From Candidatus Spechtbacteria bacterium (lineage in GTDB: Bacteria > Patescibacteriota > Minisyncoccia > Spechtbacterales > JACPHP01), in contig JACPHP010000015.1 in assembly GCA_016188605.1 (NCBI GenBank), positions 18,833-82,832 of the forward strand: a DNA stretch of 64,000 bases, given 5' to 3'. The translations under genes and the position numbers were made by a program. The notes beneath the pieces are model-generated. The model did not search any database. It saw only the letters and a program-made list of their open reading frames with translations, and was not told the origin of the DNA. Position 1 is the first letter of the stretch; every line of letters begins with the position of its first letter. Shown piece by piece: positions 40,286-59,940 of the stretch.

Positions 40286-40419
40286 GCACCCCGATGTTTC
40301 AAGGTGCCAAACCGGGCCGTCGATATGGACTCGCGGGCCCGATTAGCCTGTTATCCCCAGGGTAACTTTTGTCTGATGATCTTCTCCTTTTCTATGAAAA
40401 AGAGTCGGTTCACTAAGTT

Positions 40420-40545
40420 CTGCTTTCGCAACTTGCCAATGCTCCGCATTGGCACACTGATATACACAGATACGAACACGGATATACACCGATTTTATCT
40501 GTGTTAATCCGTTTTCTTATCCACGTTAATCCGTGTGTCAGTGCG
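40420..40545 (-). repeat. IVS-like insertion, family A copy 1 (in 23S, near E. coli ~2375)
   Basis: ccaatgctccgcattggcacactgatatacacagatacgaacacggatatacaccgattttatctgtgttaatccgttttcttatccacgttaatccgtgtgtcagtgcgaagcactgacatc. Identical to 44207-44332. Confidence 0.7.
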
Positions 40546-40693
40546 AAGCACTGACATCTTATACTCCCGCTTGATTTTACTCTCGAGGTTTCTAAGAGCG
40601 CGGCTTACTTGCCTTGCAGTAAAGCCAGTTTGTGCCTTTACGCGACCACTCCGATTTCCATCCGGAGTTAACTGACCTTAATAAACGCCTCCG

Positions 40694-41344
40694 CTACAAT
40701 TTAGGCAATGTGTTCCCTAGCATTCCTAGCTTATACCGCATTGATGGCAAAATATATGGATCTATCAATTCTACAAATTTTTCAACCGTAGAACTGTTTA
40801 TATACAATTGCCAAAGGTTTCTCTGCGGCCGCAAATGTGTTTGAACACCAAATTTATTTTCCAATATCTTAATTAGTATAAGATTTTCTGCTTTGGAAAA
40901 ACTTTGCGTATTCAATATCAGCGCGCGATGATGCTTTGATTTTATTGAGCCATCATCCATAAACCAAACTGCTAATACTAATGGCGTGAGCCAACGTTCG
41001 ATCTGTCTCGGTAAAACTTTATGCTTATCTTTATAAAATTGTTGGGCATAAAATCTAAACGCTCCATGACTGATCGTTGAAAACCAATGTTCACGATATA
41101 TCCTATCAAATACAACATGTTGTTTTTCTTGAGGCGGGGTTAATACCCATTCTTTGAATTTTTCATATAACCAAAGAGTGTATTTTTCCTGCCAATATGC
41201 ATGTTCAATCTTCAAACGATAGGTACGTTCGTGATTTTGGGTTTCAAGATGTCCATCACCAAGTAGTACACCAATGAGAATCTCTTTCTGCCCCTCCGAT
41301 AACCGAAGCGTTTGTTTATACGCCTCAATCTTCTTTGATCTCAT
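40694..41344 (-). CDS. LAGLIDADG homing endonuclease (two-motif)
   Basis: LIGVLLGDGHL and LAVWFMDDGS motifs. 216 aa. Confidence 0.8.
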   Translation of the reverse strand: MRSKKIEAYKQTLRLSEGQKEILIGVLLGDGHLETQNHERTYRLKIEHAYWQEKYTLWLYEKFKEWVLTPPQEKQHVVFDRIYREHWFSTISHGAFRFYAQQFYKDKHKVLPRQIERWLTPLVLAVWFMDDGSIKSKHHRALILNTQSFSKAENLILIKILENKFGVQTHLRPQRNLWQLYINSSTVEKFVELIDPYILPSMRYKLGMLGNTLPKL

Positions 41345-41626
41345 AAATGTAGGTGATCCTTACGGATCCTTATGGTCGCCCATAAGTTCAGACTATATCA
41401 CCCTCATTACTCCATAAAGTAATGAGTTTCAGCGTGTAGTCGTTGAGGGGAATGCAATCTTCAAAAATTATGCATTCTTCCCTGCTGATAAGCCGCATTA
41501 CGTGATTTTCACCCTTTCGACTAGGTACACGTACATACTGCATCCATTTAAGGAACGGTTTTCCCAGCATATAGCTGATTTTGCAATGCAATCTTACGAC
41601 TGCATGGCCCCTGTGGCTGTAGCAAG
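40706..41626 (-). mobile_element. Group I intron (I3) near 23S ~L2240, carrying a double-motif LAGLIDADG ORF in its 3' part
   Basis: Exon ...GGGGCGCTAGCCTCAAGAGT | intron | AGCGGAGG.... S-element GTGATATAGTCTGAAC at 41410-41396. The ORF stop TAG overlaps the 3' junction. Confidence 0.55.
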
Positions 41627-41949
41627 CCACTCTTGAGGCTAGCGCCCCACTAAAACTGCCTACCATCCACTGTTCCCTGTGTTTCGCGCAAGGTTAGTTT
41701 TTACATTTTAAAAGATGGGTGTTGCATTGACGGCTCCATCTCGCCCGAAAGCGAAACTTCAAAGCCTACCCACTACGCTACGCAGTCAAAATATAAAAAC
41801 AATGGAAAGCTGCAGTAAAGCTCCTGGGGTCTTTTCGTCTTGTTGCAGGACAACGGCATCTTTACCGTTACTGCATTTTCACCTAGCTCTTCGTTGAGAC
41901 AGTTGCCCAGTCATTACACCTTTCGTGCGGGACAGAAGTTACCTGCCAC

Positions 41950-42994
41950 AATTATGTTACTACCCCAAATACAAATTGAGGACGGAAAGAGCGCTTCGGC
42001 TCCTTCTCTCTATGTCGCCATAGAGTTCAGACTATATCACATTCTCTGGACGAAATCGTACAGAGAGCTTTGGCATGTAGTCGTTGAGGGTTCGTTGCAA
42101 TTTATCTAATTTTTTTCTTTGCGTTATATGTCGTAAAGGATACTGATGAAGAAATATATTTGCAAAAGCTATAATCGTACTTTTTGCATTTGTTTCCCAA
42201 TGACGCAATCCATCCTTTCGCTTTCTCGTATTCCCAAAACCCGTAAAAGCTTTGAGAAGAGAGATAATCTTTTCATCTTTCATTGCGACTGCTATATAAG
42301 GCTCAAGACGATCGTTGCTTCTTTTCCAGCCGAATGATCCTTCGCCATCAATCACTCCAGCTAAAAAATATCCTACCGCATCACGAGAACTTTCCAATAA
42401 AGAAAAACTCTTTTTAATGCGTCCTTCTTCCTTTACTCTCCTTAACGCTTTTCTATATACGCCCATCACTATTGTCTTGCGGCGATGCTCTGCATGACCT
42501 TTATGTTGGTCAAGATATGAAACCGCAGCGCGCATAATTCTAATTCGTTCATTTCCCAAATCGCCACAAATTAGTGGGTACGTGGCAAGAAATGATAAAA
42601 TTATCTTTACTTTTCTTTTACCTCGAAAAGAAAGATTTAGAGCTCCTTTTACTTTAGAAATAACTCCATCATCCTCTCCAACAATTCTATTTATATCTTC
42701 AAGTAATACTCTATCAGAATTAGTTACGGTAATATCTGGCATATAGTAATGCCCAACAGGATGCTTGTTCCGAAACTTAATTACAGAACAAGACATTTCT
42801 GCAGCAAAAAATCCAGAATAATAGTGATGCGAAACTTGCAACGTTTCCTGCTGATTGTCTGACGGCCAAAAATTGACCACACCCGCAGCATTTTTACTCA
42901 TTATATATATTATACACTGAGTAGCTTAGGTTCTCCAGATGTTCCAGCATATAGCCAAATTTTCCAATAAGAGTCACCTCTTATGGTCCCCTGA
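41950..42994 (-). mobile_element. Group I intron (I4) at 23S ~L1931 (after GCGAAATTCC), carrying a LAGLIDADG ORF
   Basis: Exon ...GGTCCTAAGGTAGCGAAATTCC | intron | TTGTGGCAGGTAACTTCTGTCCCGCACGAA. S-element GTGATATAGTCTGAAC at 42044-42031. Confidence 0.6.
42032..42901 (-). CDS. LAGLIDADG homing endonuclease (289 aa, degenerate first motif)
   Basis: YFLAGVIDGEGSF motif, and an upstream YYSGFFAAEMSCS degenerate copy. Confidence 0.75.
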   Translation of the reverse strand: MSKNAAGVVNFWPSDNQQETLQVSHHYYSGFFAAEMSCSVIKFRNKHPVGHYYMPDITVTNSDRVLLEDINRIVGEDDGVISKVKGALNLSFRGKRKVKIILSFLATYPLICGDLGNERIRIMRAAVSYLDQHKGHAEHRRKTIVMGVYRKALRRVKEEGRIKKSFSLLESSRDAVGYFLAGVIDGEGSFGWKRSNDRLEPYIAVAMKDEKIISLLKAFTGFGNTRKRKDGLRHWETNAKSTIIAFANIFLHQYPLRHITQRKKLDKLQRTLNDYMPKLSVRFRPENVI

Positions 42995-43397: not shown

Positions 43398-43439
43398 ATT
43401 TATAGTTACGGCCGACATTCACCGGCGCTTACAGCACGA

Positions 43440-43545
43440 GCCATCCTTCGCTCCTCACTTCGTGCGGAGCTACGGAGTGGCAAGCTGCTTTTACTGAAAG
43501 CATGCATCGCTCCGAAGCTCTTTGCGGAGCAAAGAGCGAAGGACG
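43440..43545 (-). repeat. Structured insertion, family B copy 1 (23S helix ~1850-1880 expansion)
   Basis: ccttcgctc...cttcg...ggagctacggagtggcaagc...gctctttgcggagcaaagagcgaaggacg with a perfect internal hairpin gctctttgc-gga-gcaaagagc. Related copies at 45405-45530 and 59285-59400. Confidence 0.6.
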
Positions 43546-44206
43546 ACAAGCGCTGTTTGACGTTCCGGCATTGGTCAGGTGTCACCCCCTATACATCCTC
43601 TTACGAGTTAGCAGGGAGCTGTGTTTTTGTTAAACAGTTGCCAGGCAAAATTTAACTGCGCCCATCTTGCGATGGGAAGGCATATTCCGAAGTTACGCCT
43701 AGCTTTTTTGCCGAGTTCCTTAACGAAGACTCGCTAGTTCACCTTGGGCTACTCGCCCTGCCTACCTGTTTCGGTTTGTGGTACGGGCCCAACTCATCTG
43801 ATCGTAGAGAATTTTCTTGGAAGACTGCTCTCTTAAATCGGTCTTGACGTGTCAAAACCTGTTTCCTACTTCATCGGTTTATACCATGCGGATTTACCTA
43901 CATGGCGACCTCAAAATAGAAACGTAAATCCAATAATACGCTTAAGATACAAATCTCCGTCATCCCATAGAAATGAGTTGAGGGGCTGGAATATTAACCA
44001 GCTGTCCATCCCCCAGAGCCTTTCGGCTGAGAGGTTAGGGCCGCCTAACCCTTGGATGATTGCCATTGCCAAGGAAACCTTAGGCTTTCGGTGGGCCGAT
44101 CTCGCATCGGCCATGCGGTTACTCATGCCAACATTCTCACTTCTCTACGCTCCACCGCCCCTCACGAGACGACTTCACAGCATAGAGAATGCTCTCCTAC
44201 CACGCC

Positions 44207-44332
44207 AATGCTCCGCATTGGCACACTGATATACACAGATACGAACACGGATATACACCGATTTTATCTGTGTTAATCCGTTTTCTTATCCACGTTAATC
44301 CGTGTGTCAGTGCGAAGCACTGACATCCACGT
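44207..44332 (-). repeat. IVS-like insertion, family A copy 2, at the classical 23S helix-45 (~1170) IVS site
   Basis: Identical to 40420-40545. Flanking exon TACCGAAGACGTG | A | GCGTGGTAGGAGAGCATTCTC aligns with E. coli 23S ~1160-1180. Confidence 0.7.
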
Positions 44333-44964
44333 CTTCGGTAATATATTTGAGCCCCGGTACATTTTCGGCGCAAGAACTCTCGACTAGTAAGCTGTTACGC
44401 ACTTTTTAAAGGATGGCTGCTTCTAAGCCAACCTCCTAGCTGTCTGAGAATTCTCACCTCCTTTTCCACTTAATATATATTTAGGGACCTTAGACTGTGA
44501 TCTGGACTGTTTTCCTCACGAGCGCGGAGCTTAGCCCCCGCGTTCTAACTCCCTTCTTATCAATTCAGGAATTTGGAGTTTGATTGATTCGCCTAGGCGA
44601 AAGCCACGACAAATCATCCAGTGCTCTACCTCCTAAATGAAACAGAAGAGGCCAGCCCTAGAGCTGTTTCGGAGAGAACCAGCTATTACCAGGCTCGATT
44701 AGTTTTTCGCTACTCCCCACAGTTCATCACATAGTTTTGCAAGGCTAACGTGTACGGGCCTCCCTCCAGTTTTATCCGGAGTTCACCCTGACCATGGGTA
44801 GCTCGCCTGGCTTCGGGTCTTATGTGTGCCGCCAAGTACGCCCTATTAAGACTTGGTTTCCCTACGCCTTCGTTCCCATCGGAACTTAGACAAGCGACAC
44901 AGATAAACTCGTTGGCTCATTCTTCAATAGGCACAGCGTCACTCCTCGCTACCGCTCGGAGCTC

Positions 44965-45095
44965 CGAAATCAAATCTCAAAAATCAAATCTCAAAATTGT
45001 GGTATCGCCTTGCGGCGATTATATAGTCTCGCAAAGCGAGACACCTTAGTTTTGAGATTTGAGATTTTAATTTTGAGATTAGAAGCTCGGAGCGA
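44965..45095. repeat. 'atctcaaa' word-palindrome element inserted inside the 23S gene
   Basis: ...gctcggagc|tccgaaatcaaatctcaaaaatcaaatctcaaaattg...ttttgagatttgagattttaattttgagattagaa|gctcggagc.... 9-bp direct repeat gctcggagc at both borders. Confidence 0.55.
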
Positions 45096-45162
45096 TAGCG
45101 ATAAAGCTCCGCTTCTCTGTAGGCATATGGTTTCAGGTACTATTTCACTGCCCTCACCGGGC

Positions 45163-45201
<39 letters not shown>

Positions 45202-45404
45202 ATCATCAAAAGTATTTAGCCTTAGCTAATAGTATAGCTAGATTCGCTCGAGGCTTTCGTTCCTCGAGTTACTCAAGAATAGCAACAGGAGATGTGAATT
45301 TTTCGTCTACGGGACCATTACCCTCTTTGGTCGCCCTTTCCAGGGACATTCGACTAAATTGCACATTTTGTGACTCCTTTGGATTGCTCCAATGCTGCCA
45401 TCTT

Positions 45405-45530
45405 ACAACCCCCATCCTTCGCTCTTTACTTCGTAAAGAGCTTCGGAATGGCAAGCCACTATATAAATTTCTGGCATGCTGTTCCGTAGCTCCTTGCGGA
45501 GCAAAGAGCGAAGGACGGGTTTGGGCTTTT
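45405..45530 (-). repeat. Structured insertion, family B copy 2 (23S 5' domain)
   Basis: ccttcgctctttacttcgtaaagagcttcggaatggcaagcc...ctccttgcggagcaaagagcgaaggacg. Confidence 0.55.
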
Positions 45531-45829
45531 CCCTGTTCGCTCGCCGCTACTGAGGGAATCATAGTTATTTTCTTTTCCTCCGCTTACTGAGATGTTTCAC
45601 TTCAGCGGGTGTGGGTTCCAGCTTGCGCTGGAAGAATGCGGTTTTGCCGCACTGAGTTTCCTCATTCGGAAATCCCCGGATCATAGGTTGCTAGGCACCT
45701 CCCCGAAGCTTATCGCAGCCATGCTACGTCCTTCATCCCCTTTTGATGTCAAGGCATCCACCATACGCCCTTAAAAATGTTTGCATGATGCAGTTAAATG
45801 CTCCTCGCTATGCTCGCTCGTCGCAGACG

Positions 45830-48126: not shown

Positions 48127-48200
48127 TGGTGGACCATGGGAGAATCGAACTCCCATCTCCCGGATGCAAACCGGGTGCTCTGCCACTAAGCTAATGGCCC
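48127..48200 (-). tRNA. tRNA-Ala (anticodon TGC), CCA encoded
   Basis: GGGCCATTAGCTTAGTGGCAGAGCACCCGGTTTGCATCCGGGAGATGGGAGTTCGATTCTCCCATGGTCCACCA. G3:U70 Ala identity pair present. Confidence 0.85.
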
Positions 48201-48519: not shown

Positions 48520-48591
48520 TGGGCGCGGAAGGAGTCGAACCTTCCGCCTCTTTCTTATCAGGAAAGCGTTCTACCGCTGAACTACGCGCCC
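48520..48591 (-). tRNA. tRNA-Ile (anticodon GAT)
   Basis: GGGCGCGTAGTTCAGCGGTAGAACGCTTTCCTGATAAGAAAGAGGCGGAAGGTTCGACTCCTTCCGCGCCCA. Anticodon loop CTGATAA. Confidence 0.85.
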
Positions 48592-48821: not shown

Positions 48822-50645
48822 GTGCTAACATCATTAGTTCCAGTCGAGTCATTACTCGACCCCGTTCTTGCTGCCGCAGTATGGCCTGAAAGTATTACAA
48901 GCAATGAAGTTTTCAAACAACAGCTTGAACGGCGCAGGGAGCTGATAAAACGCCTCGAAGACGTCATTTGCTCTCTGCCCCGGCCAGATATGCCTATCGG
49001 GACAGCTATTGATCTGGGGTATATCACCGAGGAACAAGTTGCGGCACTCTATGAATCTCTAAGCGATTTGCTGCAAGACCCGTACTACAAGCGCATTGTC
49101 TTCTATCTTCCATTTGAATTCTTGCCCAACAGAACGTGGGACCATTTCGGGGAAAAACTCCGACAGGTCGCTAGACTATTTAGGCAGGTATACATGGATG
49201 CTTGGTGGCATCTGCTTCTAGTGCAAGACGTACGCGCCAATTTCGTAGATGGCGACGTGCTTGAAGTAGGGCAGAGAGTCGGCGACTTGCCGCGAGTAGT
49301 GAAGGCGGCTCATCTCATACCCAAGCTCGTTGAAAACGGCTTGCTAGAGATTGAGGACGTCATATCTCTCATGGAAAAAGCCAACGATCAGGTGCTGAAA
49401 GATAGCATTGCCGATGCGCTCCCCGTTCTAGCAGATATGGGATTTATTCCAGATACAGAAGCTGACACAGAATCAGCTGAAGCAACACCAAAGCCGATTA
49501 CGCTTACATATGTTCGCAAAAAATTGGATAAAGCGTTCTCTAGAATAGATACTGAAGATTTCGGCAGTATCACGAAGGGTCGAAAAAATTGGCTTGTACA
49601 AAAAAAGAGGCAAGAAGCCATCGATGCCGCTGGAGAAGATATATGCACAGCAATCGTTCGAGGAGAGCTCTCTAATGAAATAACGGCGAGCTTTCTCGCT
49701 TACGGAGATTCTGCTATGCAGCGAGTGCTTGTCGAAGGAATTAGAGCGGCCATTGAGTCCGTCGCGCTAACTAACGTTAGCAGGGCGCACGCACTGTACG
49801 CTCAGTATAAAGAAACTTTGCTAGCACTTTGGGAGAGCGACGATCCTGATATCGGGGAAGCGCTATCCAAAACTTTCCGCCGGCTCCATTACCTCGGTAT
49901 TGTTGATGACCAACGGCTGTCGGAGTTAGGAATAGTCATTCCACGTCTCGCAGGACCTTTCTCTAAAAATCTTAGGTCAATGGGAAAGGACTTGCGCGAT
50001 ATAGAAACGATGGCCGCGTCTATCAAATGCAACAGCGAGCTGTCGCGGCTCATATACCCGGGGGTTCTCATGTACGGCTCGCGCATCAAGGGATACGGCG
50101 CGCAAAATTCTGATATTGACCTTGCCGTATTTGTGAGGCCGGGAACGCCTTTTGCTGGCAGGTCGGAGCTACAAAAACTACTTGGACAAACTTTCGCGCA
50201 TAATGCGATTCGCGGCCAAGTTGTTGAATTCTGGCTGGAAGAAAAGGGCGAGATACTTCGAATTCGTGACTTCAATAGTTCTGATGTATATCTGGGAGAA
50301 AGCTATTGGACACATGTCCTGTTTGGCGCCGTATGGATGGGCGGCGATGATACAATACGTGAGTTGTATGAAAAACTGCTGACTCCATATATGCGCGATG
50401 ACGGTAATATAATTTTTGGCCGCGGCGCAATAAGCATCTACTTGGAGGAAACAGAACGAGACACTCTACAGTACAGGTTGATGCATAAAGGATATGAACG
50501 ATTCTTCCCGCCATGCGGCGGCATACACACACCCCATTCAGATAGAATTAATGATAGTAGCATGTTCTGGGATTCGGGATACAGGCAACTTGCAACAATG
50601 CTGTTTGTAAGCAGAGTTTTTCTGCCGAATATCCCAGTTGTATAA
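48822..50645 (+). CDS. Large protein with C-terminal pol-beta-type nucleotidyltransferase domain (GS...DID minimal NTase core)
   Basis: 607 aa. LMYGSRIKGYGAQNSDIDLAVFV fits hG[GS]x9-13Dh[DE]h. ~400-aa helical N-terminal region of unknown type. Strong SD, GTG start. Confidence 0.5.
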   Translation: MLTSLVPVESLLDPVLAAAVWPESITSNEVFKQQLERRRELIKRLEDVICSLPRPDMPIGTAIDLGYITEEQVAALYESLSDLLQDPYYKRIVFYLPFEFLPNRTWDHFGEKLRQVARLFRQVYMDAWWHLLLVQDVRANFVDGDVLEVGQRVGDLPRVVKAAHLIPKLVENGLLEIEDVISLMEKANDQVLKDSIADALPVLADMGFIPDTEADTESAEATPKPITLTYVRKKLDKAFSRIDTEDFGSITKGRKNWLVQKKRQEAIDAAGEDICTAIVRGELSNEITASFLAYGDSAMQRVLVEGIRAAIESVALTNVSRAHALYAQYKETLLALWESDDPDIGEALSKTFRRLHYLGIVDDQRLSELGIVIPRLAGPFSKNLRSMGKDLRDIETMAASIKCNSELSRLIYPGVLMYGSRIKGYGAQNSDIDLAVFVRPGTPFAGRSELQKLLGQTFAHNAIRGQVVEFWLEEKGEILRIRDFNSSDVYLGESYWTHVLFGAVWMGGDDTIRELYEKLLTPYMRDDGNIIFGRGAISIYLEETERDTLQYRLMHKGYERFFPPCGGIHTPHSDRINDSSMFWDSGYRQLATMLFVSRVFLPNIPVV

Positions 50646-50648
50646 AAT

Positions 50649-50677
50649 AAAGCCGTTGGTTTCACCAACGGCTTTTG
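50649..50677 (+). terminator. Hairpin aaagccgttggt-ttca-ccaacggcttt followed by tg/taatt
   Basis: Immediately after the 48822-50645 stop, between convergent genes. Confidence 0.55.
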
Positions 50678-50746
50678 TAATTGAAGAAGACCACCCCGCA
50701 ACTGCAAGGTGGCCTCAATTTTATAGATTAAAGAACAAAAAACGAA

Positions 50747-51892
50747 TTAGTTACCGCTACGGCGGTGTTCAGTGCCAATACCGGTAAGCCGTTTACTTGC
50801 AGACGCGCTGGCGCTGAGCTGGTCCCAGGGAATCTGGGAGCCAAGCATGTACAGCGCGCCAAAGTACTGCAATTCTTCATTGCCGGCTGGCTGATCCTTG
50901 ACCCGCATGACCGCCAACACGAATCGAGTCAGGTTGGTCTCCAGCCGCGGATACGTGGCAGAAACCGCTACACCGAGCTGTCGAATCATCTGGTCACGGT
51001 TAGCGGCACCGATCAACGCTGGCAGACGGGTATTTTCCAGGGTTTCTTTGATCTTGGATGCGTCATAAGCGAGCGCAGCCGCGATCTGAACTCCCGTTCC
51101 CGCAAAAACCTTGTTTACAGAATCGGCCATTGCATCTGCTGCGTCACGCAGCCCGCCTGTATCCGGCGGCTGCATCATGCCCGAAGGCATAGCGCCACCA
51201 CCGCCGACCATCGCCATCATGGCATTCATCATAAGAGCAGGATTTGCTGCGCCCTGCACCCACGCATCCTGCCAGGATTTAAGCTGTCCATAGAAAGTCG
51301 TAATCGCTGGCCAAAGATGCTCATCAATGCGCTGAAAAAGCTGCTTCTTTCGCGCTTCAGTCACATACGAACCATCCAAACCGTCGATCGCCGCAAAGAT
51401 CTCAGCATAGCTGCGTCGCGTCATTTCCTTTCGAAGCTTAAAAAACTCCGGATCAACCTGCTCTTCGTTCGTATCCGCAAATCTCTCCATCAAGCCAGCG
51501 AGCACATCCGGGATACTGAAGAGGCCTGCCCGGTATGCCAGTGCCGCCCGAACTGCCGAAATAACAGTGGATTGATCAACCTTGAGGATTCCACCAGTTC
51601 GAAGCGCTTCCAGCCAAGAAGCATCGGTGGGCACTGCGGGAAGCACAGCATCAAAAGAAATGGCTCCCATTGTACTTACTGCGGGCGGCTCAGCCACTGG
51701 CTTAGCCGGTGCAAGCGCTTTGAGCAAATTCCTTGCCGGCAATACTTTCATGCCGACTCCGACGAGGTCTTGCTCTGTCAAACCAGCCAGATCTTCCACG
51801 GTCGTAGCACCAAGATCAGAAATAATCTTCTCAATCACTTCAGATGCAACGCCCATAGACTCAAGTTTGGCAGTTACTTCAGTGACTTCCAT
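50747..51892 (-). CDS. Hypothetical protein with N-terminal tandem helix-hairpin-helix-like segment
   Basis: GVASEVIEKIISDLGATTVEDLAGLTEQDLVGVGMKVLPARNLLKAL. SD AAAGGGG 8 nt upstream of ATG. Confidence 0.4.
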   Translation of the reverse strand: MEVTEVTAKLESMGVASEVIEKIISDLGATTVEDLAGLTEQDLVGVGMKVLPARNLLKALAPAKPVAEPPAVSTMGAISFDAVLPAVPTDASWLEALRTGGILKVDQSTVISAVRAALAYRAGLFSIPDVLAGLMERFADTNEEQVDPEFFKLRKEMTRRSYAEIFAAIDGLDGSYVTEARKKQLFQRIDEHLWPAITTFYGQLKSWQDAWVQGAANPALMMNAMMAMVGGGGAMPSGMMQPPDTGGLRDAADAMADSVNKVFAGTGVQIAAALAYDASKIKETLENTRLPALIGAANRDQMIRQLGVAVSATYPRLETNLTRFVLAVMRVKDQPAGNEELQYFGALYMLGSQIPWDQLSASASASKRLTGIGTEHRRSGN

Positions 51893-51914
51893 TTTCTTTA
51901 CCCCTTTCGCGGTT

Positions 51915-53300
51915 CTACCTGCACATCTTATCCCGCTCGGTACTTCCCAGCGAGATCATTCTAACTTGCACTCCCAGCTTTTCTCCAATTATACTGGCAC
52001 AAAACGAGTAAAGCTCGCTTGGTGTGGCGGGCGATGGAACTTTCAGGGTCGTAATTTCCGGCTTGCAGCGCGAAAGCTGTTTGCCGAGCGATTCCTGATA
52101 TTCCAACTGATTGTTATCCGTTCCCACACGGACTTTGATTGCGCCCGTGGGCGTAAAATATGTAGGATCGTCCGCGCCGAGATAACGGTCGCATATACGC
52201 CACTCTCCGTTAGCCACAATTTGATCGAACCATGTGACGGCCAGGCCATTGAATGCATTTGGGCCGCCGCAAACTTCTATAGCGTAACGAAGTAAAACGA
52301 GATCCAGCGCCCCTACGCGCACTTCTCCCTGATAGCGGTTGCTTTCTTTGTGACTGCCTGGAAGCAATCTTTCTGCCATCTCGGGATTGGCAGTAGGCAT
52401 CGGACCCGCACCGTGGCGAATTGCGTATGCTCGGAACACTCCGAAATTCACAATCTCTCCGTCGTAGCCAGCATCTATAAGCATCGCTTGCGTAAAGCAC
52501 GGCAATGTTCGAATGGCGCTTACGTGCGGATAGAAACCGTGAAAGTGATCGGTGATAACTCCGTGCGAGCTTTCAACTACAACCACACCGTCCCGAGCAA
52601 GGACTTCTCGCTCAAGATATTCATGGCCGACAATCTTAGCTCGCCGCGATACTTCTTCAAACCGTTCGGCAATATAGTCGAGGAAGCCGTCATCATAAAG
52701 AAGAGCAACTTCCTTTTGCATCGCCTCACGGTCGCTAGGCAAGAACTCGCCGCCAATAGTCTCGTTGAGATCGCTGCGTATTTGCTCTCGCACGCAAACA
52801 AGCAAATCTTTCAGATCGGGCCGCGACAAATCGCAGGCTCGAATCGTAAGATCCGGATACTGTTGCAAATAGCGATACGCTTCACCAACGCCTGTGCCAA
52901 TCGTGCCGCGAGGATTATTACCACGTGACATTTCTTTCAGGCGCGACGCAATTCCGTGATAAGGCGTGGCGCACAATGCCATTTCATCTACCGTCAGCAG
53001 ACCAAACGGATTGTGTATGCCGTGCTGATATCGAAGTGCGTCAGACTCATTAAGTAAACCTTCTGGAGAAACGATAAACCGAGCGGAGATATGCGTGTTA
53101 ATGCCTTCGAATGTGCCGCATCCCCACTGGCTGAAAGCAAAGCTCTCGCCACGCGAAGTGCGGACACCGTGGCTTCCCTGCGCGCCTCCGACTTTCACGA
53201 CGGTGTGGGCACGCATCATTGTTGCGATTTTGTGCACCACACCGCCCTTGCCGCCGTCACCAGGACCGAGGTCGGTGACGGTGTAGACTTTCTTGGTCAT
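51915..53300 (-). CDS. Divergent adenylosuccinate-synthetase (PurA)-like enzyme
   Basis: P-loop GPGDGGKGGVVHK (PurA GDEGKGK); VKVGGAQGSHGV (PurA GGHNAGHT); NPRGTIGTGVGEAY (PurA TTGRGIGPAY); ESSHGVITDHFHGFYPHVSA (PurA [21 protein letters not shown]); HGAGPMPT (PurA RVGAGPFPT). The aspartate-binding TTGRRRRTGW loop is replaced by SNRYQGEVRVG. ATG at 53300 with GAGGAAGGTGG SD. Confidence 0.6.
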   Translation of the reverse strand: MTKKVYTVTDLGPGDGGKGGVVHKIATMMRAHTVVKVGGAQGSHGVRTSRGESFAFSQWGCGTFEGINTHISARFIVSPEGLLNESDALRYQHGIHNPFGLLTVDEMALCATPYHGIASRLKEMSRGNNPRGTIGTGVGEAYRYLQQYPDLTIRACDLSRPDLKDLLVCVREQIRSDLNETIGGEFLPSDREAMQKEVALLYDDGFLDYIAERFEEVSRRAKIVGHEYLEREVLARDGVVVVESSHGVITDHFHGFYPHVSAIRTLPCFTQAMLIDAGYDGEIVNFGVFRAYAIRHGAGPMPTANPEMAERLLPGSHKESNRYQGEVRVGALDLVLLRYAIEVCGGPNAFNGLAVTWFDQIVANGEWRICDRYLGADDPTYFTPTGAIKVRVGTDNNQLEYQESLGKQLSRCKPEITTLKVPSPATPSELYSFCASIIGEKLGVQVRMISLGSTERDKMCR

Positions 53301-53310
53301 CGTCGCCACC

Positions 53311-53350
53311 TTCCTCGGTACGCCGAAGTCTCGCTTGGCGAGACTTCGGC
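53311..53350. promoter_or_regulatory. Perfect 17-bp-stem palindrome ggtacgccgaagtctcgc-ttgg-cgagacttcggcgtacc inside the cassette operon, abutting the PurA-like SD
   Basis: Direct reading. No T-run, so more likely a processing/stability or attenuator element than a terminator. Confidence 0.4.
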
Positions 53351-53379
53351 GTACCTTTCAATCTTGATTTGGTAACTGG

Positions 53380-54537
53380 CTAGAGCCAGTTGGGTCCGTC
53401 GTCGGAGTCCTCGTCTTCGGAATCTCCAGAAGTAGCCGAATCAATTTCACTAGGATCGACCGGCCAGAGGTCGGTCTTTTCCCTGAAAAGATCGCCGGCC
53501 TTCGGAAGCTTATCGAAGTTCGGAGAAAGCATCTGAGCTCCGAGAGGAATATGCGCAACTGCGTGAATAATCTGACGCGCACTGAATTCTGAAACATTAT
53601 GCTCCGTAAGAAATTCCAAAGCAGACCCCAGGCTCAGCACGCCCTCCATGAGACCGATGATTATTGCCTTTACACAGTGCAGGTTGTTCGTACCTTCAGG
53701 AAGCATAACGAAATGACCAGCTCCATACAAATCGCTCCACTGATCTGCAACATCCCGACGATTTCCAACCTGCAAAAAGAAGGCATGCGCCTTGGTCTGT
53801 AGATCCCTGACTACTTGCGCGGTGTTAGGCAGTTTTCCATTACTGAAGTCATAACCATTTTCTTTGGCATGCTCCAGTACGTCATCTCCGTAAATCTTCT
53901 TCAGCCAACGCGGATCGATAGTTTCAACGATCGGCTCGTCAGAGATCGTGAAGTGATAGTACTTCAAGCCCCATCGGTTAATCGCTGCATTAGTCAAGTA
54001 CACAGCGCCGAAAAGACCGAACTGTGGATCTTCCTTGCCGTTACCTTGACCCCTACGGCCAGGCACTAAATGAGTCATCTGGGAAGCAATTTTCTCGTCC
54101 ATCTCAAATTGAGTACGACATAGCACAGGCACGTCTTCTCCATCTTCAACGTCGTTGAATATGGCAGTTGCAATCTGAACGTCATATCGACCTAAAATAG
54201 GACGACTGCCGCTGGTCAGCATCTCGTAAGAACTAGGCAAGACATCAAATGCTGTATCTACGTTGCCCCCCATAGAACCGGTTGTATCTAGCAAATCTTC
54301 TTCAGCCATAGGAATACCGCAAGTCAGGACCCATAAGTTACCGCGCTTCTCAAAACGCGGCAGAGATCGACGAATGGGCCCGAGATGAGCAGGTCCTTTC
54401 GGATCCACCAGCGGATCTAGACCTTGTCCTTGGTGCATTCGCTCTTCAGCACCGCTGGTAGCTTTCTTGGTTCCATTAGACGTAGCGCTATAACGAACTC
54501 CGGTATAACCAGACCTTGAAAATGTATTCTTCCCCAT
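53380..54537 (-). CDS. Hypothetical protein with vWA-like (MIDAS DxTxS) segment and acidic C-terminal tail
   Basis: LLDTTGSMGG MIDAS-like motif. C-terminal SGDSEDEDSDDGPNWL. SD AAAGGGG upstream. Confidence 0.4.
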   Translation of the reverse strand: MGKNTFSRSGYTGVRYSATSNGTKKATSGAEERMHQGQGLDPLVDPKGPAHLGPIRRSLPRFEKRGNLWVLTCGIPMAEEDLLDTTGSMGGNVDTAFDVLPSSYEMLTSGSRPILGRYDVQIATAIFNDVEDGEDVPVLCRTQFEMDEKIASQMTHLVPGRRGQGNGKEDPQFGLFGAVYLTNAAINRWGLKYYHFTISDEPIVETIDPRWLKKIYGDDVLEHAKENGYDFSNGKLPNTAQVVRDLQTKAHAFFLQVGNRRDVADQWSDLYGAGHFVMLPEGTNNLHCVKAIIIGLMEGVLSLGSALEFLTEHNVSEFSARQIIHAVAHIPLGAQMLSPNFDKLPKAGDLFREKTDLWPVDPSEIDSATSGDSEDEDSDDGPNWL

Positions 54538-54567: not shown

Positions 54568-55380
54568 CTACAATGATTCCGTAGTGAAAGGATGATACTT
54601 GCGCTCCCAGAGCAAATCGATTAGTTCATAGAACGCCAAGTGCGCTCTTTCCGCGTTGCTCTCGCTACCGCGGGCTAGACGCCAAAGATAGTCTGTGTAC
54701 CTACGAAAAGCCTCGTCGCCGTCATTTGGGATTGTACCCGTTTTTAGGTCGCCTCCCAGCGCAACAACAACCGATTGCGCCGCTTGAGAAATCTCTTGGC
54801 GCCTAACCTCTACGGGAACTGTGTCGGTATGTATCTGCGCGAATGACCATTCAAAAATCACCACATAGTGTTCCTTCGGCTCAATCACTATATTCTTCCC
54901 GCTCAACAAGTTAACCGAGATTCCTTCGTTGTGCAAGAACGCAAGCAACTTGAGAAGTTTGCCCATAATCCATGCGCTAGTGCGCAAATCAACCCGCAGG
55001 CGGTCTTTTGCCGTGATGTTAATCAGCGGCACCATATCGCCTACATTCTCTACATTCCTAAACGCAAAAACATTAACTTGACGCCCGCCCTGCTCAGTAC
55101 AGATGAAGCTATCCATAAGCTCGGGGAAACCAAGCTGGTAGTTAAGAGGTTCATCGGGACGAGCGTACTCCACTTCGAGCTCTTCAGCACGGCGCTGCAG
55201 TTCTTTAAGAATATAGGCGGCACGCTGAAGCGCGCCGTTGTCCTTAGTTTCGTTAGCAATCTGCAAAATATATTCGCGCTTTACTCCTTCCTGCGTACAT
55301 AGGTAAAGCCGATATTTGCCGGCTTCTGCTACCTTTTTGCCGACTTGATAAACGTGATGACCATTGCGTATAGTGATCAC
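54568..55380 (-). CDS. Protein-kinase-like fold protein with degenerate catalytic motifs (atypical kinase or pseudokinase)
   Basis: LHNEGISVNLLSGKNIVIEP resembles the HRDLKPENI catalytic loop with D->N. DFG replaced by IFEWSF. Likely GTG start at 55380, preceded by SD GAAAGGAGGG. The track ORF extends to 55536 through the leader. Confidence 0.4.
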   Translation of the reverse strand: MITIRNGHHVYQVGKKVAEAGKYRLYLCTQEGVKREYILQIANETKDNGALQRAAYILKELQRRAEELEVEYARPDEPLNYQLGFPELMDSFICTEQGGRQVNVFAFRNVENVGDMVPLINITAKDRLRVDLRTSAWIMGKLLKLLAFLHNEGISVNLLSGKNIVIEPKEHYVVIFEWSFAQIHTDTVPVEVRRQEISQAAQSVVVALGGDLKTGTIPNDGDEAFRRYTDYLWRLARGSESNAERAHLAFYELIDLLWERKYHPFTTESL

Positions 55381-55391
55381 CGAATTTCCCT

Positions 55392-55668
55392 CCTTTCGTA
55401 CTTGTATTGTAAAGGGACACAATAAACTAGTGCTGATAGTATTGTGTATAACCTGTCTTGTCAAGAGCGGCGTAAGTAACCCCTCACACCCCTCGTGAGT
55501 CATTGCGAGCCCCAAGGGGGCGTGGCCCGCCAGCAACGCCTTAAGCGTAGCTTTGGCGGGCTGGCAATCCCGCTCGTATGTGGTAACGAGATTGCTTCAC
55601 GCTACGCTCGCAATGACGTATAATAAGATTTTGATATAGGGGGTGTGGGGGGTTACCATAGCGACGCA
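55392..55668 (-). promoter_or_regulatory. Structured ~280-nt 5' leader of the cassette operon (candidate cis-regulatory RNA)
   Basis: 12-nt perfect inverted repeat GTCATTGCGAGC ... GCTCGCAATGAC enclosing ~100 nt of nested G+C-rich stems (agcgtagc/gctacgct, cccgcc/ggcggg). No match to a riboswitch class I can name. Confidence 0.35.
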
Positions 55669-55706: not shown

Positions 55707-55796
55707 AGAACTTTATTTAAGATTAGCAAATGGTGATAATAGTGTCAATAGTACACTATTAACAGGTTAAAATTTTATGAATTATTTATGCGGTTT

Positions 55797-55838
55797 TGAA
55801 TTTCACTTATCATACACGGCCGTGTATGATAAGTGAAA
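55797..55838. terminator. Perfect 20-bp-arm palindrome atttcacttatcatacacgg-ccgtgtatgataagtgaaat
   Basis: One of a run of hairpins (also 55920-55945 and 55960-56000) downstream of the 16S 3' end. Confidence 0.5.
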
Positions 55839-56161
55839 TTCAAAATGTTAACAAAATAATCCACCTATGATAAAGCAGAGGCAATAAGTATCACAAACAA
55901 AACAAACTAGTTCTTCGGGGACGGCAGAAATGCCGTCCCTTTTTCATACAATGCAAAACCCTCTGCCTTAGGCAGAGGGTTTTGCATAACTGACAGAATC
56001 ATTGCGTAAAGAAAATTTCTTATCCGCCTCAGGCGGAACATTGAACATCTAAGAGTTGCTCCAAATTGGTAACTCTTTTCTTGCGAAAAGAGATTTTAGT
56101 CTCAGACATTTGAAGGCTTTGAGACTAACGCCTTGCCTACCTTTAGCTAATCATACAGAAG

Positions 56162-56869: not shown

Positions 56870-57893
56870 GGATCAATGAGCATATCATCGTCCCACGCCA
56901 CCGGACGAACGGTTTTACCGTATCCTGGCGGCTTCCATCGAATGCTTCTTGCCAAGAAAACGCATCTGTTCACGCAATCGCACCATTTCGCTGAAACCCT
57001 TATCTGTAAGGTGTTCTTTATTGCGATACATAGTGACAATTCTCTTAAACAGTATGTATGTTTTTGCTTTCTTTGCTTGAAGATGATTTGCATCTAAAAA
57101 TGGAAAAAGATACGCTACCAAATCTTTTGAACTGGTAATTTTATACTTCGCGTGGGGGTACCATCCGTACCTCTCATACGAGCAATCATATATTTTCCCA
57201 CAACCAATTGTCACAAGAATTCGTTCGAGGATTTCACGATCATCTGCGCGGAGTTCGATTTCAAACTCGGCACGTATTTCGACAGAGCGAGGATGTTTAT
57301 AATCTCGTTCTTTTCGTTTTCCAACGCTTACCGCAAACGATCCTTCACCATCAATGAATCCTGCGACATATTGAGGAGGCAATTTTTTTCGATGAATTCG
57401 CTCCTTTCCAATCGGACCCTTCAAAGATAAATTTCTTTGGAAAGGTTTACGACTGGTACTACGAGCTCTGCTGACTTCTTGCATGGAATAAATAAAAATT
57501 ACTTTCTATCCTTCTATAATCCCAAGGTTATTTTACCGTGGAAATTAATACCAAACAAGATCTCCCCCGGTCATCTATAAAACAATTTGAAAACATCTCG
57601 ATCACCCTATACGTAGCAATAAATATACACAAAGTGACTTCCCCATGTACTCGAAGGGTGGTCTTATTACTACGCCTCAACAGTGATTCAAGCTATCTTC
57701 TGCTACCCTCGATTGTAGTTGTAACTATAATCGAGACCAAGTTTAACTTGATTTCGCCCTTCATCCTGGGGGTCACCCCTCGCAGGACTGCGATTTTGCT
57801 TCAAAGCGCTTTGTTCGCTTCGGTTGGACTTCTCACCAACAATAAAGTGGAAAGTCACCAACTCGTTCCATAAACTGCAGGGCACCCGAGTAC
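56870..57893 (-). mobile_element. Intron in 16S at ~S1391-1396 (after CTTGTAC) carrying a LAGLIDADG ORF
   Basis: Exon discontinuity CTTGTAC | ~1 kb | ACCGCCCGTCAC. No canonical S-element seen, so intron subclass is uncertain. Confidence 0.5.
56915..57484 (-). CDS. LAGLIDADG homing endonuclease (single-motif)
   Basis: YVAGFIDGEGSF motif. 189 aa. Confidence 0.8.
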   Translation of the reverse strand: MQEVSRARSTSRKPFQRNLSLKGPIGKERIHRKKLPPQYVAGFIDGEGSFAVSVGKRKERDYKHPRSVEIRAEFEIELRADDREILERILVTIGCGKIYDCSYERYGWYPHAKYKITSSKDLVAYLFPFLDANHLQAKKAKTYILFKRIVTMYRNKEHLTDKGFSEMVRLREQMRFLGKKHSMEAARIR

Positions 57894-58357
57894 AAGACTC
57901 GGGAACGTATTCACCGCGCCATAGCTGATGCGCGATTACTAGCGATTCCGGCTTCATGAGGTCGAGTTGCAGACCTCAATCCGAACTGGGGCTAATTTTG
58001 ATGGGATTTGCTCCGCCTTACGGCTTGGCGTCCCTCTGTAATTAGCCATTGTATCATGCGTGTTGCCCAGGGCATCAAAGGGTCATGCTGATTTGGCGTC
58101 ATCCCCACCTTCCTCCCCGTTATGCGGGGCAGTATCGTGTGACACATATAACACACAATAGGGGTTGCGTTTGTTACCGGACTTAACCGAGCGCCTCACG
58201 GCACAAACTGACGACAACCATGCAACACCTGCCCAATTGTCCTTGTGAGACATTCTCCCTTTCGGGAGAACTTCAACTGGGTGTCAAGCCCTGGTGAGGT
58301 TCCTCGTTTGTCATCGAATTGAACCGCATGATCCACCGCTTGTGCGAGTCCCCGTCT

Positions 58358-58389
<32 letters not shown>

Positions 58390-58796
58390 ACCCAGGCGGA
58401 ATACTTAACGCGTTAGCTTCGCCACGTGTAGGGTCGACACTACACACAGCTAGTATTCATCGTTTACAGCGTGGAATACTGGGGTATCTAATCCCATTCT
58501 CTCCCCACGCTTTCGTCCCTCAGCGTCAGAGTCATGCCAGCTGATTGCCTTCGCCTTTGGTGTTCCCCATGATATCAACGGATTTCACTCCTACACCATG
58601 AGTTCCATCAGCCTCTCATGCTCTCTAGTTTTGACGTTTCCTGCGCAGATTCAAGGTTAAGCCCTGAAATTTAACACTGGACTATCAAAACCGCCTACGG
58701 ACGCTTTACGCCCAATAATTCCGGATAACGCTCGGGGCCCTCGTATTACCGCCGCTGCTGGCACGAGGTTAGCGGCCCCTTATTCCTGAAGTACAA

Positions 58797-58940
58797 TCAA
58801 ACCGCTCCTCGCTACGCTCGGAGCACACCGATAAACGCAGATACGAACACGGATATACGCGGATATAATAATCCGTGTAAATCCATTTTCTTATCCGTGT
58901 GAATCCGTGTACGTTCCGAACGCAGTGAGGAACGGTCTTT
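58797..58940 (-). repeat. IVS-like insertion (family-A-related) in the 16S ~450-480 variable loop
   Basis: ~140 nt absent from E. coli 16S between ...CTGAAGTAC and GAAAAGCAGTTTACAACCCGAAGG. Shares cgaacacggatatac / ccgtgt words and a ccgaacgcagtgaggaac end with the 23S copies. Confidence 0.6.
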
Positions 58941-59284
58941 TTCCTTCAGAAAAGCAGTTTACAACCCGAAGGCCTTCATCCTGCACGCGGCGTCGCTCGG
59001 TCAGGCTTTCGCCCATTGCCGAAGATTCTCGACTGCAGCCTCCCGTAGGAGTAGGGCCCGTGTCTCAGTGCCCTTGTTGGGGGTCGTGCTCTCACACCCC
59101 CTACCCGTCATAGCCTTGGTGGGCCATTACCTCACCAACTAGCTGATAGGCCACAGGCCATTCCAGTACCACCTGAGTTTTACTTGCTCTTGCGAGCAAG
59201 ACCATCAAGTATTAGCTCCGATTTCTCGGAGTTATTCTTGAGTACTGGGTATGTTCCTATGTATTACTAACCCGTTCGCCACTA

Positions 59285-59400
59285 TCCTACGCTCCGCGCT
59301 ACGCGCGGAGCTACGGAATAGCAAGCTCTCCCATATTTTGAGCGCCTGCGATTCCGAAGCTCCTCACGCAGTGAGGAGCGAAGGATCGTTCGACTTGCAT
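59285..59400 (-). repeat. Structured insertion, family-B-related, in the 16S 5' domain (V1 region)
   Basis: cgctccgcgctacgcgcggagctacggaatagcaagctc...gcgattccgaagctcctcacgcagtgaggagcgaaggatcg. Confidence 0.5.
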
Positions 59401-59408
59401 GCCTTATC

Positions 59409-59440
<32 letters not shown>

Positions 59441-59940
59441 GAACTCTTAAAATAAACGAAGTTTATTTTAAGCCCATCCGAAGTTCCGACGAAGTCGGAA
59501 CGCAGGAGGGCCATACAAAACTTCGTTAAATACCAATTTGAAACAACTCTTGAATGTTCAACGTAAAGTTGCAGAGCAACCACGTTGCAAGCAACATAAA
59601 GGGCTCTACGCCCCACGTTGCAAGCAATAATTGTTTTTGTTTCTCGCACATTTGTATATTTGAGGGTGTTGCTCCTCGCCTATACGTTGCCCCCTTCGGG
59701 GGACTTGGCTCTAAAATGTTACGTAGAAATATAAATAAATATACTTCTACGTTTAATAATAATTACAACGTAAAGTTGCGTGGCAACTCCGTAAAGAGGG
59801 CGTGGCCCTCCACGGAGGGTTTTACGCCCCACGTTGCTTTACGCAAGAAAATGTAATTATTATTAAAGCTGATTCTGTTCAGTTGTTAATGTTCATCCGA
59901 AATATTTTCTATTAAATACAATACTTTCGGATACGTAGAC

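Follow-up and report, generated by a model that had tools for sequence, protein, structure and literature searches.

Gene and protein

The window analysed here is a stretch of 64,000 nucleotides from a Candidatus Spechtbacteria bacterium (contig JACPHP010000015.1), a member of the candidate phyla radiation (CPR, or Patescibacteria). The gene of interest encodes a protein with the fold of PurA, the adenylosuccinate synthetase that acts on IMP, GTP and L-aspartate, and belongs to a conserved gene cassette.

51915..53300, minus strand: gene for the PurA-like enzyme, 461 aa from the ATG at 53300

The mechanically called open reading frame (ORF) is slightly longer, running from 51915 to 53309 on the minus strand, with GTG initiation and 464 aa. 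The ATG at 53300, also the start in a first-pass annotation made from this DNA, is taken as the real one because it is preceded by a ribosome-binding site, GAGGAAGG. An NCBI copy (P0001), from a Candidatus Spechtbacteria metagenome-assembled genome, is likewise of 461 aa and 100% identical. Residue numbers below are those of the 464-aa ORF.

The Pfam entry for adenylosuccinate synthetase (PF00709) covers residues 17-458, corresponding to profile positions 8-412 of 416, with an E-value of 8.5e-37, so that the fold assignment is far beyond chance. All the motifs quoted in the first-pass annotation were found in the ORF. They include GDGGKG at 17-22, GGAQGSH at 41-47, NPRGTIGTGVGEAY and GVITDHFHGFYPHV, along with HGAGPMPT, SNRYQGEVRVG and VTWFDQIV.

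Active-site residues compared with PurA

The active site was compared with that of Escherichia coli PurA (EC 6.3.4.4; PDB 1ADE/1CG0), for which residue roles are described in the enzyme literature. Three alignments were used: one with HMMER against PDB chains, one with MAFFT including E. coli PurA, the PurZ protein of phage phiVC8 and relatives, and one with MAFFT including 119 family members. The fold is common to the two proteins over their whole length, at around 26% identity. Equivalents are present of the P-loop G12-D13-x-G15-K16-G17, His41, E221, G225, R272, G274, D311, the guanine-specifying D333 and S414/G416, as well as of the glycine-rich IMP loop (G127, G130, G132 and G134). The P-loop and histidine equivalents, G17, D18, K21, G22 and H47, are aligned and invariant. 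In its fold, its P-loop and its catalytic Asp13 and His41, therefore, the protein conforms to PurA.

The loop that binds L-aspartate is a different matter. In all three alignments E. coli TTGRRRRTGW pairs with RYQGEV-RVGA, T300-T301-G-R303-R304-R305-R306 being matched by Y326-Q327-G-E329-V330-(gap)-R331. The remodelled loop is one residue shorter and a single arginine, R331, is left. Loss of this Arg loop was the central claim of the first-pass annotation and is upheld here; since the three alignments agree, the loop is not merely shifted. The position of R303 is occupied by Glu in the window protein and by Lys in most CPR members. The block corresponding to TKLDVLD is also divergent, as had been proposed: TKLD is here TWFD, with the aspartate (D362, equivalent to D333) kept and the lysine lost. 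The K331 position is Trp in the window protein (W360) and His in actinobacterial and phage members.

Nor does the protein show the PurA pattern of IMP ligands (N38, T129, T239, R143' and Q224). The substitutions N38 to Q44, T129 to I137, T239 to S264 and Q224 to H249 are accompanied by V273 to H299, and there is no Arg equivalent of R143. Two of the four ligands of the IMP 5'-phosphate are thus changed, and the base-contacting Gln, Q224, is His.

These features extend well beyond the window. Among 133 diverse family representatives, the equivalents of G12, D13, G15, K16, G17, H41, D333, S414 and G416 are kept in 88-99% (D362, S453 and G455 included), and in the CPR set the same positions are kept in 117-119 of 119 members. 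The replacements are equally a family property: Gln stands for N38 in 93% of the representatives, His for V273 in 97% and Gln at T301/G302 in 86%, while 97% have a single Arg in the loop. The loop consensus is YQG(K/E)V-R, with Tyr or Trp for T300 and Gln for T301, and T129 becomes Ile or Val. At the Q224 position 106 representatives have Gln and 27 have His, the change to His being confined to CPR.

By alignment, then, the residues for GTP binding, the lysine of TKLD apart, and those for phosphoryl transfer are intact, and the aspartate-binding ones have given way to others that are themselves conserved (His, Gln, Tyr/Trp). GTP is likely to be used by the enzyme. Since the aspartate-binding residues are gone throughout the family and the catalytic and GTP residues are kept, a nucleophile other than L-aspartate, as suggested in the first-pass annotation, is a reasonable expectation. 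The other half of the chemistry suggested there, a 6-oxopurine mononucleotide as substrate, fares less well given the loss of two IMP-phosphate ligands and the change of Gln to His.

An extensive family outside PurA and PurZ

A search of 1.84 billion representatives of clusters at 50% identity retrieved 5,442 relatives at E<=1e-3 and 1,313 clusters at E<=1e-30. More than 1,300 clusters with common changes indicate a large family distinct from both PurA and PurZ. Canonical PurAs of solved structure were matched with E-values of only 1e-16 to 1e-5, albeit in a PDB search of a much smaller database. The best 120 database relatives are 63-100% identical to the window protein and, among these, all that carry an organism name come from metagenome-assembled or uncultured genomes, mostly of CPR lineages. 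Remoter relatives, at 32-35% identity, are encoded by cluster-C mycobacteriophages, in genes annotated 'PurA-like' (gp256 in Bxz1/LRRHood), and by Rhodococcus megaplasmids (WP_065493578 on pR1CP1). A genome scan added members in Chloroflexota (for example Oscillochloris trichoides DG6) and Myxococcota, and a scan of IMG/VR added many contigs of 100-500 kb with genes of the family. A literature search found no description of the family, of the gene triad to which it belongs or of its connection with the regulator NrtR (both below).

Databases name the protein adenylosuccinate synthetase, and the simplest reading would be that it is a genuine but very divergent one, the sole PurA of CPR organisms that salvage purines. 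The full-length match to PF00709 is consistent with this, as are the catalytic Asp and His, the GTP motif, the one remaining loop Arg and the Lys found at the R303 position in most CPR members. However, scores against the NCBIfam PurA equivalogs are 47-91 bits where the cut-offs are 368-700: 90.8 against 402 for NF002223, 82.6 against 395.55 for TIGR00184 and 46.5 against 368 for the archaeal-type NF003295. The protein thus falls 4-10 times below, and far under every one of, the curated PurA cut-offs, which answers the concern, raised in the first-pass annotation, that it might cluster inside ordinary PurA. Moreover, T300, T301, R303, R304 and one more loop Arg are replaced, the R303 position being Glu here. 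The gene is an extra copy on Rhodococcus plasmids, in Myxococcus, in Chloroflexota and in phages; Rhodococcus, Myxococcus, Chloroflexota and the phage hosts have a normal purA. Finally, in the surveyed loci it is linked to genes for a vWA protein and a pseudokinase, never to purine genes. We consider it very unlikely that the ORF at 51915..53300 is an adenylosuccinate synthetase.

A second possibility is a PurZ-like enzyme that supplies DNA or RNA with a non-canonical purine, either 2-aminoadenine or some other N6-modified base. PurZ (NF038379; phiVC8 gp27) is, like the present protein, a PurA-fold paralogue with an altered substrate and is found in phages; phage relatives of the window protein exist too, and its best PHROG match is the PurZ-labelled phrog_1211. 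Yet the score against NF038379 is 21.4 bits, the cut-off being 300, and identity to phiVC8 PurZ is 23%. In PurZ, which still uses aspartate, Ser stands for Asp13 and both the TKLD-type guanine motif and the C-terminal part are missing, whereas the present family keeps the equivalents of Asp13 and D333 and has lost the aspartate ligands. None of the neighbours typical of Z genomes (dATP triphosphohydrolase, MazZ, DpoZ) adjoins the PurA-like gene, which is chromosomal in CPR and has as neighbours the genes for the vWA protein, the pseudokinase, a 381-aa protein and a nucleotidyltransferase. The analogy with PurZ drawn in the first-pass annotation does not survive these differences, and a PurZ-like function is extremely unlikely.

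The gene cassette

The survey of gene neighbourhoods took in 80 loci from genomes and 80 from viruses. Nearly universal across them is the order kinase-like gene, gene for a vWA protein resembling that of 385 aa in the window, PurA-like gene, which occurs in CPR, in Chloroflexota, on a Rhodococcus plasmid, in mycobacteriophages and on jumbo-phage contigs of IMG/VR. In four CPR contigs the genes run as follows: 270 aa, 372-389 aa, PurA-like, 330-400 aa and then, convergently, a protein of around 600 aa that bears a Pol-beta nucleotidyltransferase domain. This is exactly the arrangement in the window, with the gene at 51915..53300 third among five.

54568..55380, minus strand: kinase-like protein, 270 aa, with a PHROG kinase match; GTG start at 55380 after AAGGAGG
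53380..54537, minus strand: vWA protein, 385 aa, with an intact metal ion-dependent adhesion site (MIDAS), D84-x-T86-x-S88; invariable upstream partner of the PurA-like gene
50747..51892, minus strand: 381-aa protein with an N-terminal HhH/SAM-like domain, in the CPR form of the cassette only
48822..50645, plus strand: nucleotidyltransferase, 607 aa, convergent to the operon; C-terminal Pol-beta domain of MNT/MntA type with GS...D431xD433
53317..53354, minus strand: hairpin with a 17-bp stem, GGTACGCCGAAGTCTCG-CCAA-CGAGACTTCGGCGTACC, in the spacer between the vWA and PurA-like genes, just 5' of the PurA-like ribosome-binding site
50649..50675: stem-loop (12 pairs) flanked on each side by a T-run, where the 381-aa and nucleotidyltransferase genes converge

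The stem-loop at 50649..50675 is probably a bidirectional terminator that closes the operon.

The module, then, consists of a pseudokinase, with or without a J-domain, a vWA/MIDAS protein and the PurA-like protein, to which CPR add the 381-aa protein and the nucleotidyltransferase; among the surveyed loci the latter two are confined to CPR. BLASTP shows the 270-aa and 385-aa proteins to be homologous to gp253 (annotated 'Ser/Thr kinase') and gp254 of mycobacteriophage LRRHood, and also to the products of the two genes upstream of the Rhodococcus PurA-like copy. The 385-aa protein has the vWA fold with the MIDAS pattern DxSxS...T...D. A Pfam search at E<=5 left both the vWA protein and the CPR pseudokinase without any domain, and its matches in the 381-aa protein were insignificant. 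In a profile search against PDB sequences the 381-aa protein yielded only the weak HhH/SAM-like match at its N-terminus, and the transferase its minimal nucleotidyltransferase (MNT) domain. The 381-aa protein is 63-74% identical between CPR lineages.

The match of the 270-aa protein to the kinase fold is weak. It keeps the elements H..G......N.LI.P, D/E-W and P.E but, in an alignment with the phage and Rhodococcus kinases, the Lys of VAIK is replaced by Gln, the Asp of HRD by Leu, Ala or Arg, and the Asp of DFG is variable. The HRD Asp is absent from the family and, in CPR, the VAIK Lys is absent too. The protein is therefore probably a pseudokinase. Relatives outside CPR carry an N-terminal J-domain, with HPD in 39 of 44 long forms, and a profile of this region matches the J-domain of E. 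coli DnaJ with an E-value of 4e-20.

The 607-aa protein consists of about 400 residues of N-terminal alpha-helical repeats followed by the MNT domain. Its association with the PurA-like enzyme goes as far as gene fusion: two cluster representatives, P0270 (1,129 aa) and P0383 (1,102 aa), are PurA-like enzymes with the whole nucleotidyltransferase protein fused at the C-terminus, matching it at 29% identity over some 600 residues (E-values 2e-75 and 6e-67, respectively). The gene for P0270 (L090:3421-6810; L numbers denote surveyed loci) follows kinase-like and vWA genes. The P-loop of P0270 is degenerate, with GIGEETKS in place of GDGGKGG.

The transferase is also tracked by the active-site change at Q224. 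His is present at this position in 48 of 48 loci with the transferase, and Gln in 27 of 27 loci without it; five more His cases lie on truncated loci. There are thus two subtypes: the triad, with Gln, and the five-gene cassette, with His, which is the one found in the window.

Known systems offer partial parallels. The C-terminal domain of the 607-aa protein resembles MntA/MNT proteins (HI0073 and the HEPN-MNT antitoxins) in its fold and its GS...DxD motif, but the protein differs in having some 400 residues of helical repeats, no HEPN partner and a linkage, or fusion, to the PurA-like enzyme. Triads of vWA and Ser/Thr kinase proteins such as TerY-P, and the vWA-centred 'ternary' systems, are what we take, from comparative genomics, to be the nearest signalling parallel. 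They too combine a vWA/MIDAS protein with a kinase-fold protein in one operon, and the J-domain found outside CPR provides a link to Hsp70. However, the triad operon has no genes for PP2C phosphatase, Hsp70 or STAND NTPases, its kinase lacks the catalytic Asp and its third gene encodes a PurA fold. A PADLOC scan of eight cassette and flanking proteins found nothing for the triad, only a weak PDC-S09 match for the nucleotidyltransferase domain and a homing-endonuclease match for a flanking ORF.

With such partners it could be asked whether the PurA-like protein is a catalyst at all. PurA belongs to the SIMIBI class of P-loop proteins, many members of which are dimerisation switches, and a non-catalytic GTP switch that regulates or assembles its partners would suit both the protein-interaction modules encoded alongside and the degenerate P-loop of one fused subgroup. 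Nevertheless, more than 92% of the family keep Asp13 and His41, the base and the acid of PurA catalysis; the glycine-rich nucleotide loops are conserved as well, and so are active-site residues peculiar to the family, with His for V273 and Gln for T301. This is more than a pure switch would need, and we regard such a role as very unlikely.

An NrtR-type operator and links to NAD genes

Gene context carries the most information on the role of the cassette, through the conserved operon, the fused or adjacent nucleotidyltransferase and a connection with NrtR and NAD. Two promoter-region features precede the pseudokinase gene.

55740..55758: perfect palindrome TAGTGT-N7-ACACTA with a GT-N7-AC core, predicted NrtR operator
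55436..55464, minus strand: second promoter-like site, TTGACA-17-TACTAT, directly 5' of the pseudokinase gene and downstream of an inserted repeat element

The palindrome is the sole match to its motif in the window, where 0.06 would be expected. It overlaps a -35 element, TTGACA (55748-55743), which with the -10 element TAATCT at 55725-55720 lies upstream of the operon. Its core is that of published NrtR sites, which are 21-bp palindromes with core GT-N7-AC from which NrtR is released by ADP-ribose (Rodionov et al. 2008, PMC2330246). The family also differs from PurA in that its gene shares an operon with those for a vWA protein and a pseudokinase, with an NrtR-type operator in place of purine control.

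Between this promoter and the pseudokinase gene there is an insertion resembling a miniature inverted-repeat transposable element (MITE), of around 173 bp (~55480-55652), with 13-nt terminal inverted repeats, CCCCCCACACCCC and GGGGTGTGAGGGG, and an internal inverted repeat, CATTGCGAGC...GCTCGCAATG. It accounts for the spurious N-terminal extension of ORF 54568..55536, an artefactually lengthened form of the kinase-like gene. Just upstream of the operator, at 55799-55840, lies a perfect palindrome of 21+21 nt, AATTTCACTTATCATACACGG and CCGTGTATGATAAGTGAAATT, which could be the terminator of an upstream unit or another binding site.

Across 1.43 Mb of the surveyed loci, TAGTGT-N7-ACACTA was matched at 46 sites in at least 11 of 12 positions, where base frequencies predict around 3. 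Nearly all lie between genes. Some precede the triad, in CPR and also in Chloroflexota, where they are often in tandem; others precede pncA/His-phosphatase, nadE/nadD, ADP-ribosylglycohydrolase, nrtR, nadB-nadA and prs/Nudix genes. Sites of the latter kind were found in L003, L008, L019, L025, L029, L079, L084 and L085. When at least 10 of 12 positions were required, 12 of 16 Chloroflexota-type loci and 9 of 48 CPR loci had the motif before the triad; 0.045 would be expected per equivalent stretch. No CPR-type motif was detected in the Myxococcota loci, nor in the majority of loci from animal-associated Saccharibacteria.

The genes around the cassette point the same way. One CPR locus (L008) reads nrtR-nadB-nadA-[cassette]-nadE-radical SAM-NAD kinase-Nudix-nadD-pncB, and another (L009) ADP-ribosylglycohydrolase...nrtR-[cassette]-pncA...pncB; in these and in L019, L025 and L029 the cassette is flanked by genes drawn from nrtR, nadB, nadA, nadE, NAD kinase, nadD, pncB, pncA and ADP-ribosylglycohydrolase. 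Clustering of neighbours gave nrtR in 12 loci and ADP-ribosylglycohydrolase in 8, with pncB, nadE, nadD and pncA also recurrent. In several loci nrtR lies directly upstream of the kinase-like gene. Beside the cassette in L003 (12526-15430) there are genes for PRPP synthetase, a Nudix protein that has a winged helix at its N-terminus, a phosphoribosyltransferase and a second Nudix protein, with the same palindrome as above at 13550 in the divergent promoter region.

Similar signals are seen outside CPR. On the Rhodococcus opacus plasmid pR1CP1, the 'NUDIX hydrolase' encoded after the PurA-like gene (L006:9166-9813) is a full-length NrtR homologue (profile E-value 1e-29), and a perfect 21-bp palindrome with a GT-N7-AC core, TTTTAGTCATCTAGACTAAAA (TTTTAGT-N7-ACTAAAA; L006:5697-5717), ends 12 nt before the kinase-like gene. 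The NrtR box of Mycobacterium, defined by experiment, is GTTTTCGA-N7-TCGAAAAC (PMC6800001). Phages LRRHood (L005:4306-4328) and Gizmo (L091:33536-33558) agree with it at 15 of 16 positions, a match of which around 1e-4 would be expected per 8 kb. The phage box is sited inside the kinase gene, gp253, 377 nt upstream of the vWA gene, and suggests that the host NAD regulator may control these mycobacteriophage genes. No NAD genes were found near the triad in the Gizmo region.

On jumbo-phage contigs (L102, L103, L104 and L107/L108) there are tight operons with, in this order, nrtR, recognised by its NrtR winged-helix domain, nadV (NAMPT) and, further on, vWA, PurA-like, kinase-like and NMNAT-like genes. 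They are headed by GT-N7-AC palindromes, and the triad lies between nadV and the NMNAT gene. When 150 viral neighbour proteins were counted by Pfam family, NAMPT tied for first place, with an occurrence in only four loci. The NMNAT-like gene that closes the phage operon (L102:8483-9685, L103:8410-9549) encodes about 200 extra N-terminal residues which, by eye, resemble a CinA/PncC-type (NMN deamidase-like) domain. A shared radical-SAM partner was considered and rejected, the radical-SAM genes beside the cassette in L008 and L102 not being homologous to each other.

In sum, the operon has an operator of the NrtR type, and its connection with NAD-salvage genes extends over five independent lineages.

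Proposed function

From its active site and gene context, we consider that the PurA-like protein is probably the catalytic member of an undescribed module in NAD+/ADP-ribose homeostasis, acting as a GTP-dependent ligase and not in AMP synthesis. GTP would serve to phosphorylate a bound nucleotide-like substrate on an oxygen, either carbonyl or hydroxyl, and a non-aspartate nucleophile would then displace the phosphate. ADP-ribose, a product of NAD+ breakdown, would release NrtR and switch the operon on; an operon switched on in this way suggests a reaction that would rebuild or rebalance nucleotides derived from NAD+ and ADP-ribose. The vWA protein and the pseudokinase are probably non-catalytic assembly or regulatory subunits and, in CPR, the nucleotidyltransferase may act together with the His-variant enzyme.

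As to the reaction, we would place first an aspartate-independent amination or amidation of a mono- or dinucleotide. Examples would be the conversion, with ammonia, of nicotinic acid mononucleotide (NaMN) or nicotinic acid adenine dinucleotide (NaAD) to nicotinamide mononucleotide (NMN) or NAD+, or that of a hypoxanthine to an adenine nucleotide. Second would come an activated ADP-ribose-type intermediate that condenses with nicotinamide. The ranking follows from the geometry of PurA, where the gamma-phosphate of GTP faces the O6 position of the base, not C1' of the ribose; related P-loop amidoligases activate carboxylates. Phosphorylation of the anomeric hydroxyl of ADP-ribose followed by attack of nicotinamide was, in view of this feature of the E. 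coli structure, set aside as the main mechanism.

Several observations weigh against a role in NAD+/ADP-ribose homeostasis. The window itself, in all its 64 kb, has neither nrtR nor any NAD gene, and NAD genes or the operator lie near the cassette in only about 14 of 60 CPR loci; near the cassettes of animal-associated Saccharibacteria neither was found. The CPR clusters that do hold the cassette contain a complete PncA-PncB-NadD-NadE (Preiss-Handler) route, so that a missing step is not obvious. The mycobacteriophage NrtR box is in a coding region, not a promoter, and ORF calling in the compared loci was crude. A J-domain pseudokinase and a vWA protein are more typical of signalling or conflict systems than of metabolism, and the suggested chemistry is read from conserved residues alone.

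The partner proteins in particular invite the alternative of a conflict system, of defence or counter-defence, in which the vWA protein and J-domain pseudokinase would sense or transmit a signal and the PurA-like effector would convert or deplete a nucleotide pool, NrtR timing expression to the NAD+ depletion that occurs in infection. NAD+ depletion is indeed a common outcome of defence and one that phages are known to counter. The abundance of the family in jumbo phages, mycobacteriophages and megaplasmids fits, as do vWA, kinase-like and J-domain partners of the kind typical of regulated multi-component systems; there are, in addition, weak and non-significant matches to the TCAD9 and EAD2 domains. 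On the other hand, no component of the triad matches a PADLOC model, and the operon has NAD-salvage clusters, not defence islands, as its surroundings. Between phylum-level CPR lineages with tiny genomes, furthermore, the PurA-like and 381-aa proteins are 63-79% identical, which looks like a housekeeping function. A conflict role is accordingly rather doubtful.

Within the reading as an NAD+/ADP-ribose module, a more specific proposal can be made, tentatively. It is possible, though less likely than not, that the triad is a new GTP-driven system, induced by ADP-ribose through NrtR, that regenerates NAD+ or a nucleotide precursor from the products of NAD+ breakdown. It would serve for housekeeping in CPR and, in phages, as a fourth NAD+ reconstitution pathway (NARP) against NAD+-depleting immunity. 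The triad shares the GT-N7-AC operator with the NrtR regulon, clusters with pncA, pncB, nadD, nadE, nadV and NMNAT genes and, in jumbo phages, sits between two genes of the NARP2 type. The pathways described so far, NARP1 (Adps and Namat), NARP2 (NadV and NMNAT) and NARP3 (PnuC and NadR), differ in having no PurA-fold enzyme, vWA protein or pseudokinase.

Surroundings of the cassette

The window is part of a CPR chromosome, with rpoB, rpoC, ftsK, ftsW, an RNase J gene and an rRNA operon with introns. The possibility that it was phage DNA, raised by a homing endonuclease and by strand bias, was rejected in view of the rRNA genes, rpoB, rpoC, ftsK and ftsW, and of the Candidatus Spechtbacteria label of P0001.

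56915-57484, minus strand: homing endonuclease, 189 aa, just downstream of the 16S gene (PADLOC HEase, E-value 1.7e-23; PHROG HNH)

The rRNA operon (38414-59454, minus strand) is in two parts: about 9.2 kb lies between the 16S gene (57844-59454) and the group made up of tRNA-Ile (48520-48591), tRNA-Ala (48130-48200), 23S and 5S. This gap holds the homing-endonuclease ORF and the entire five-gene cassette. Since a convergent gene pair separates them, 16S is transcriptionally unlinked from 23S. The 23S rRNA is matched in two pieces, 43414-45770 and 39731-41869, its 3' end being unmatched; ORFs lie in or beside the gaps at 42032-42901, 40694-41344 and 39058-39537, and there is a group I intron at 39875-40311. 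The gaps look like rRNA insertions of CPR type with intron-encoded endonucleases. The G+C content over the cassette (50001-54000) is 0.51-0.52, compared with around 0.42-0.47 for most of the window, and may reflect strong coding constraint or a foreign origin.

Implications

The protein is labelled 'adenylosuccinate synthetase' in hundreds of CPR genomes, and metabolic reconstructions that credit these organisms with conversion of IMP to AMP on that basis are probably wrong. What is concealed by the name is a large enzyme family, so far uncharacterised, which has two constant partners and whose regulation and neighbours point to NAD+/ADP-ribose metabolism. Several members are open to culture: Bxz1-type mycobacteriophages in M. 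smegmatis, the plasmids of Rhodococcus opacus and R. jostii, Oscillochloris and Myxococcus. If the proposal is correct, this would be the first PurA-fold enzyme with a pyridine or ADP-ribose-type acceptor or nucleophile. Identification of its reaction would bring new chemistry to the PurA fold and, possibly, a route of NAD+ salvage or reconstitution common to bacteria and giant phages, in an area of metabolism central both to the dependent lifestyle of CPR and to the conflicts of phages and hosts over NAD+.

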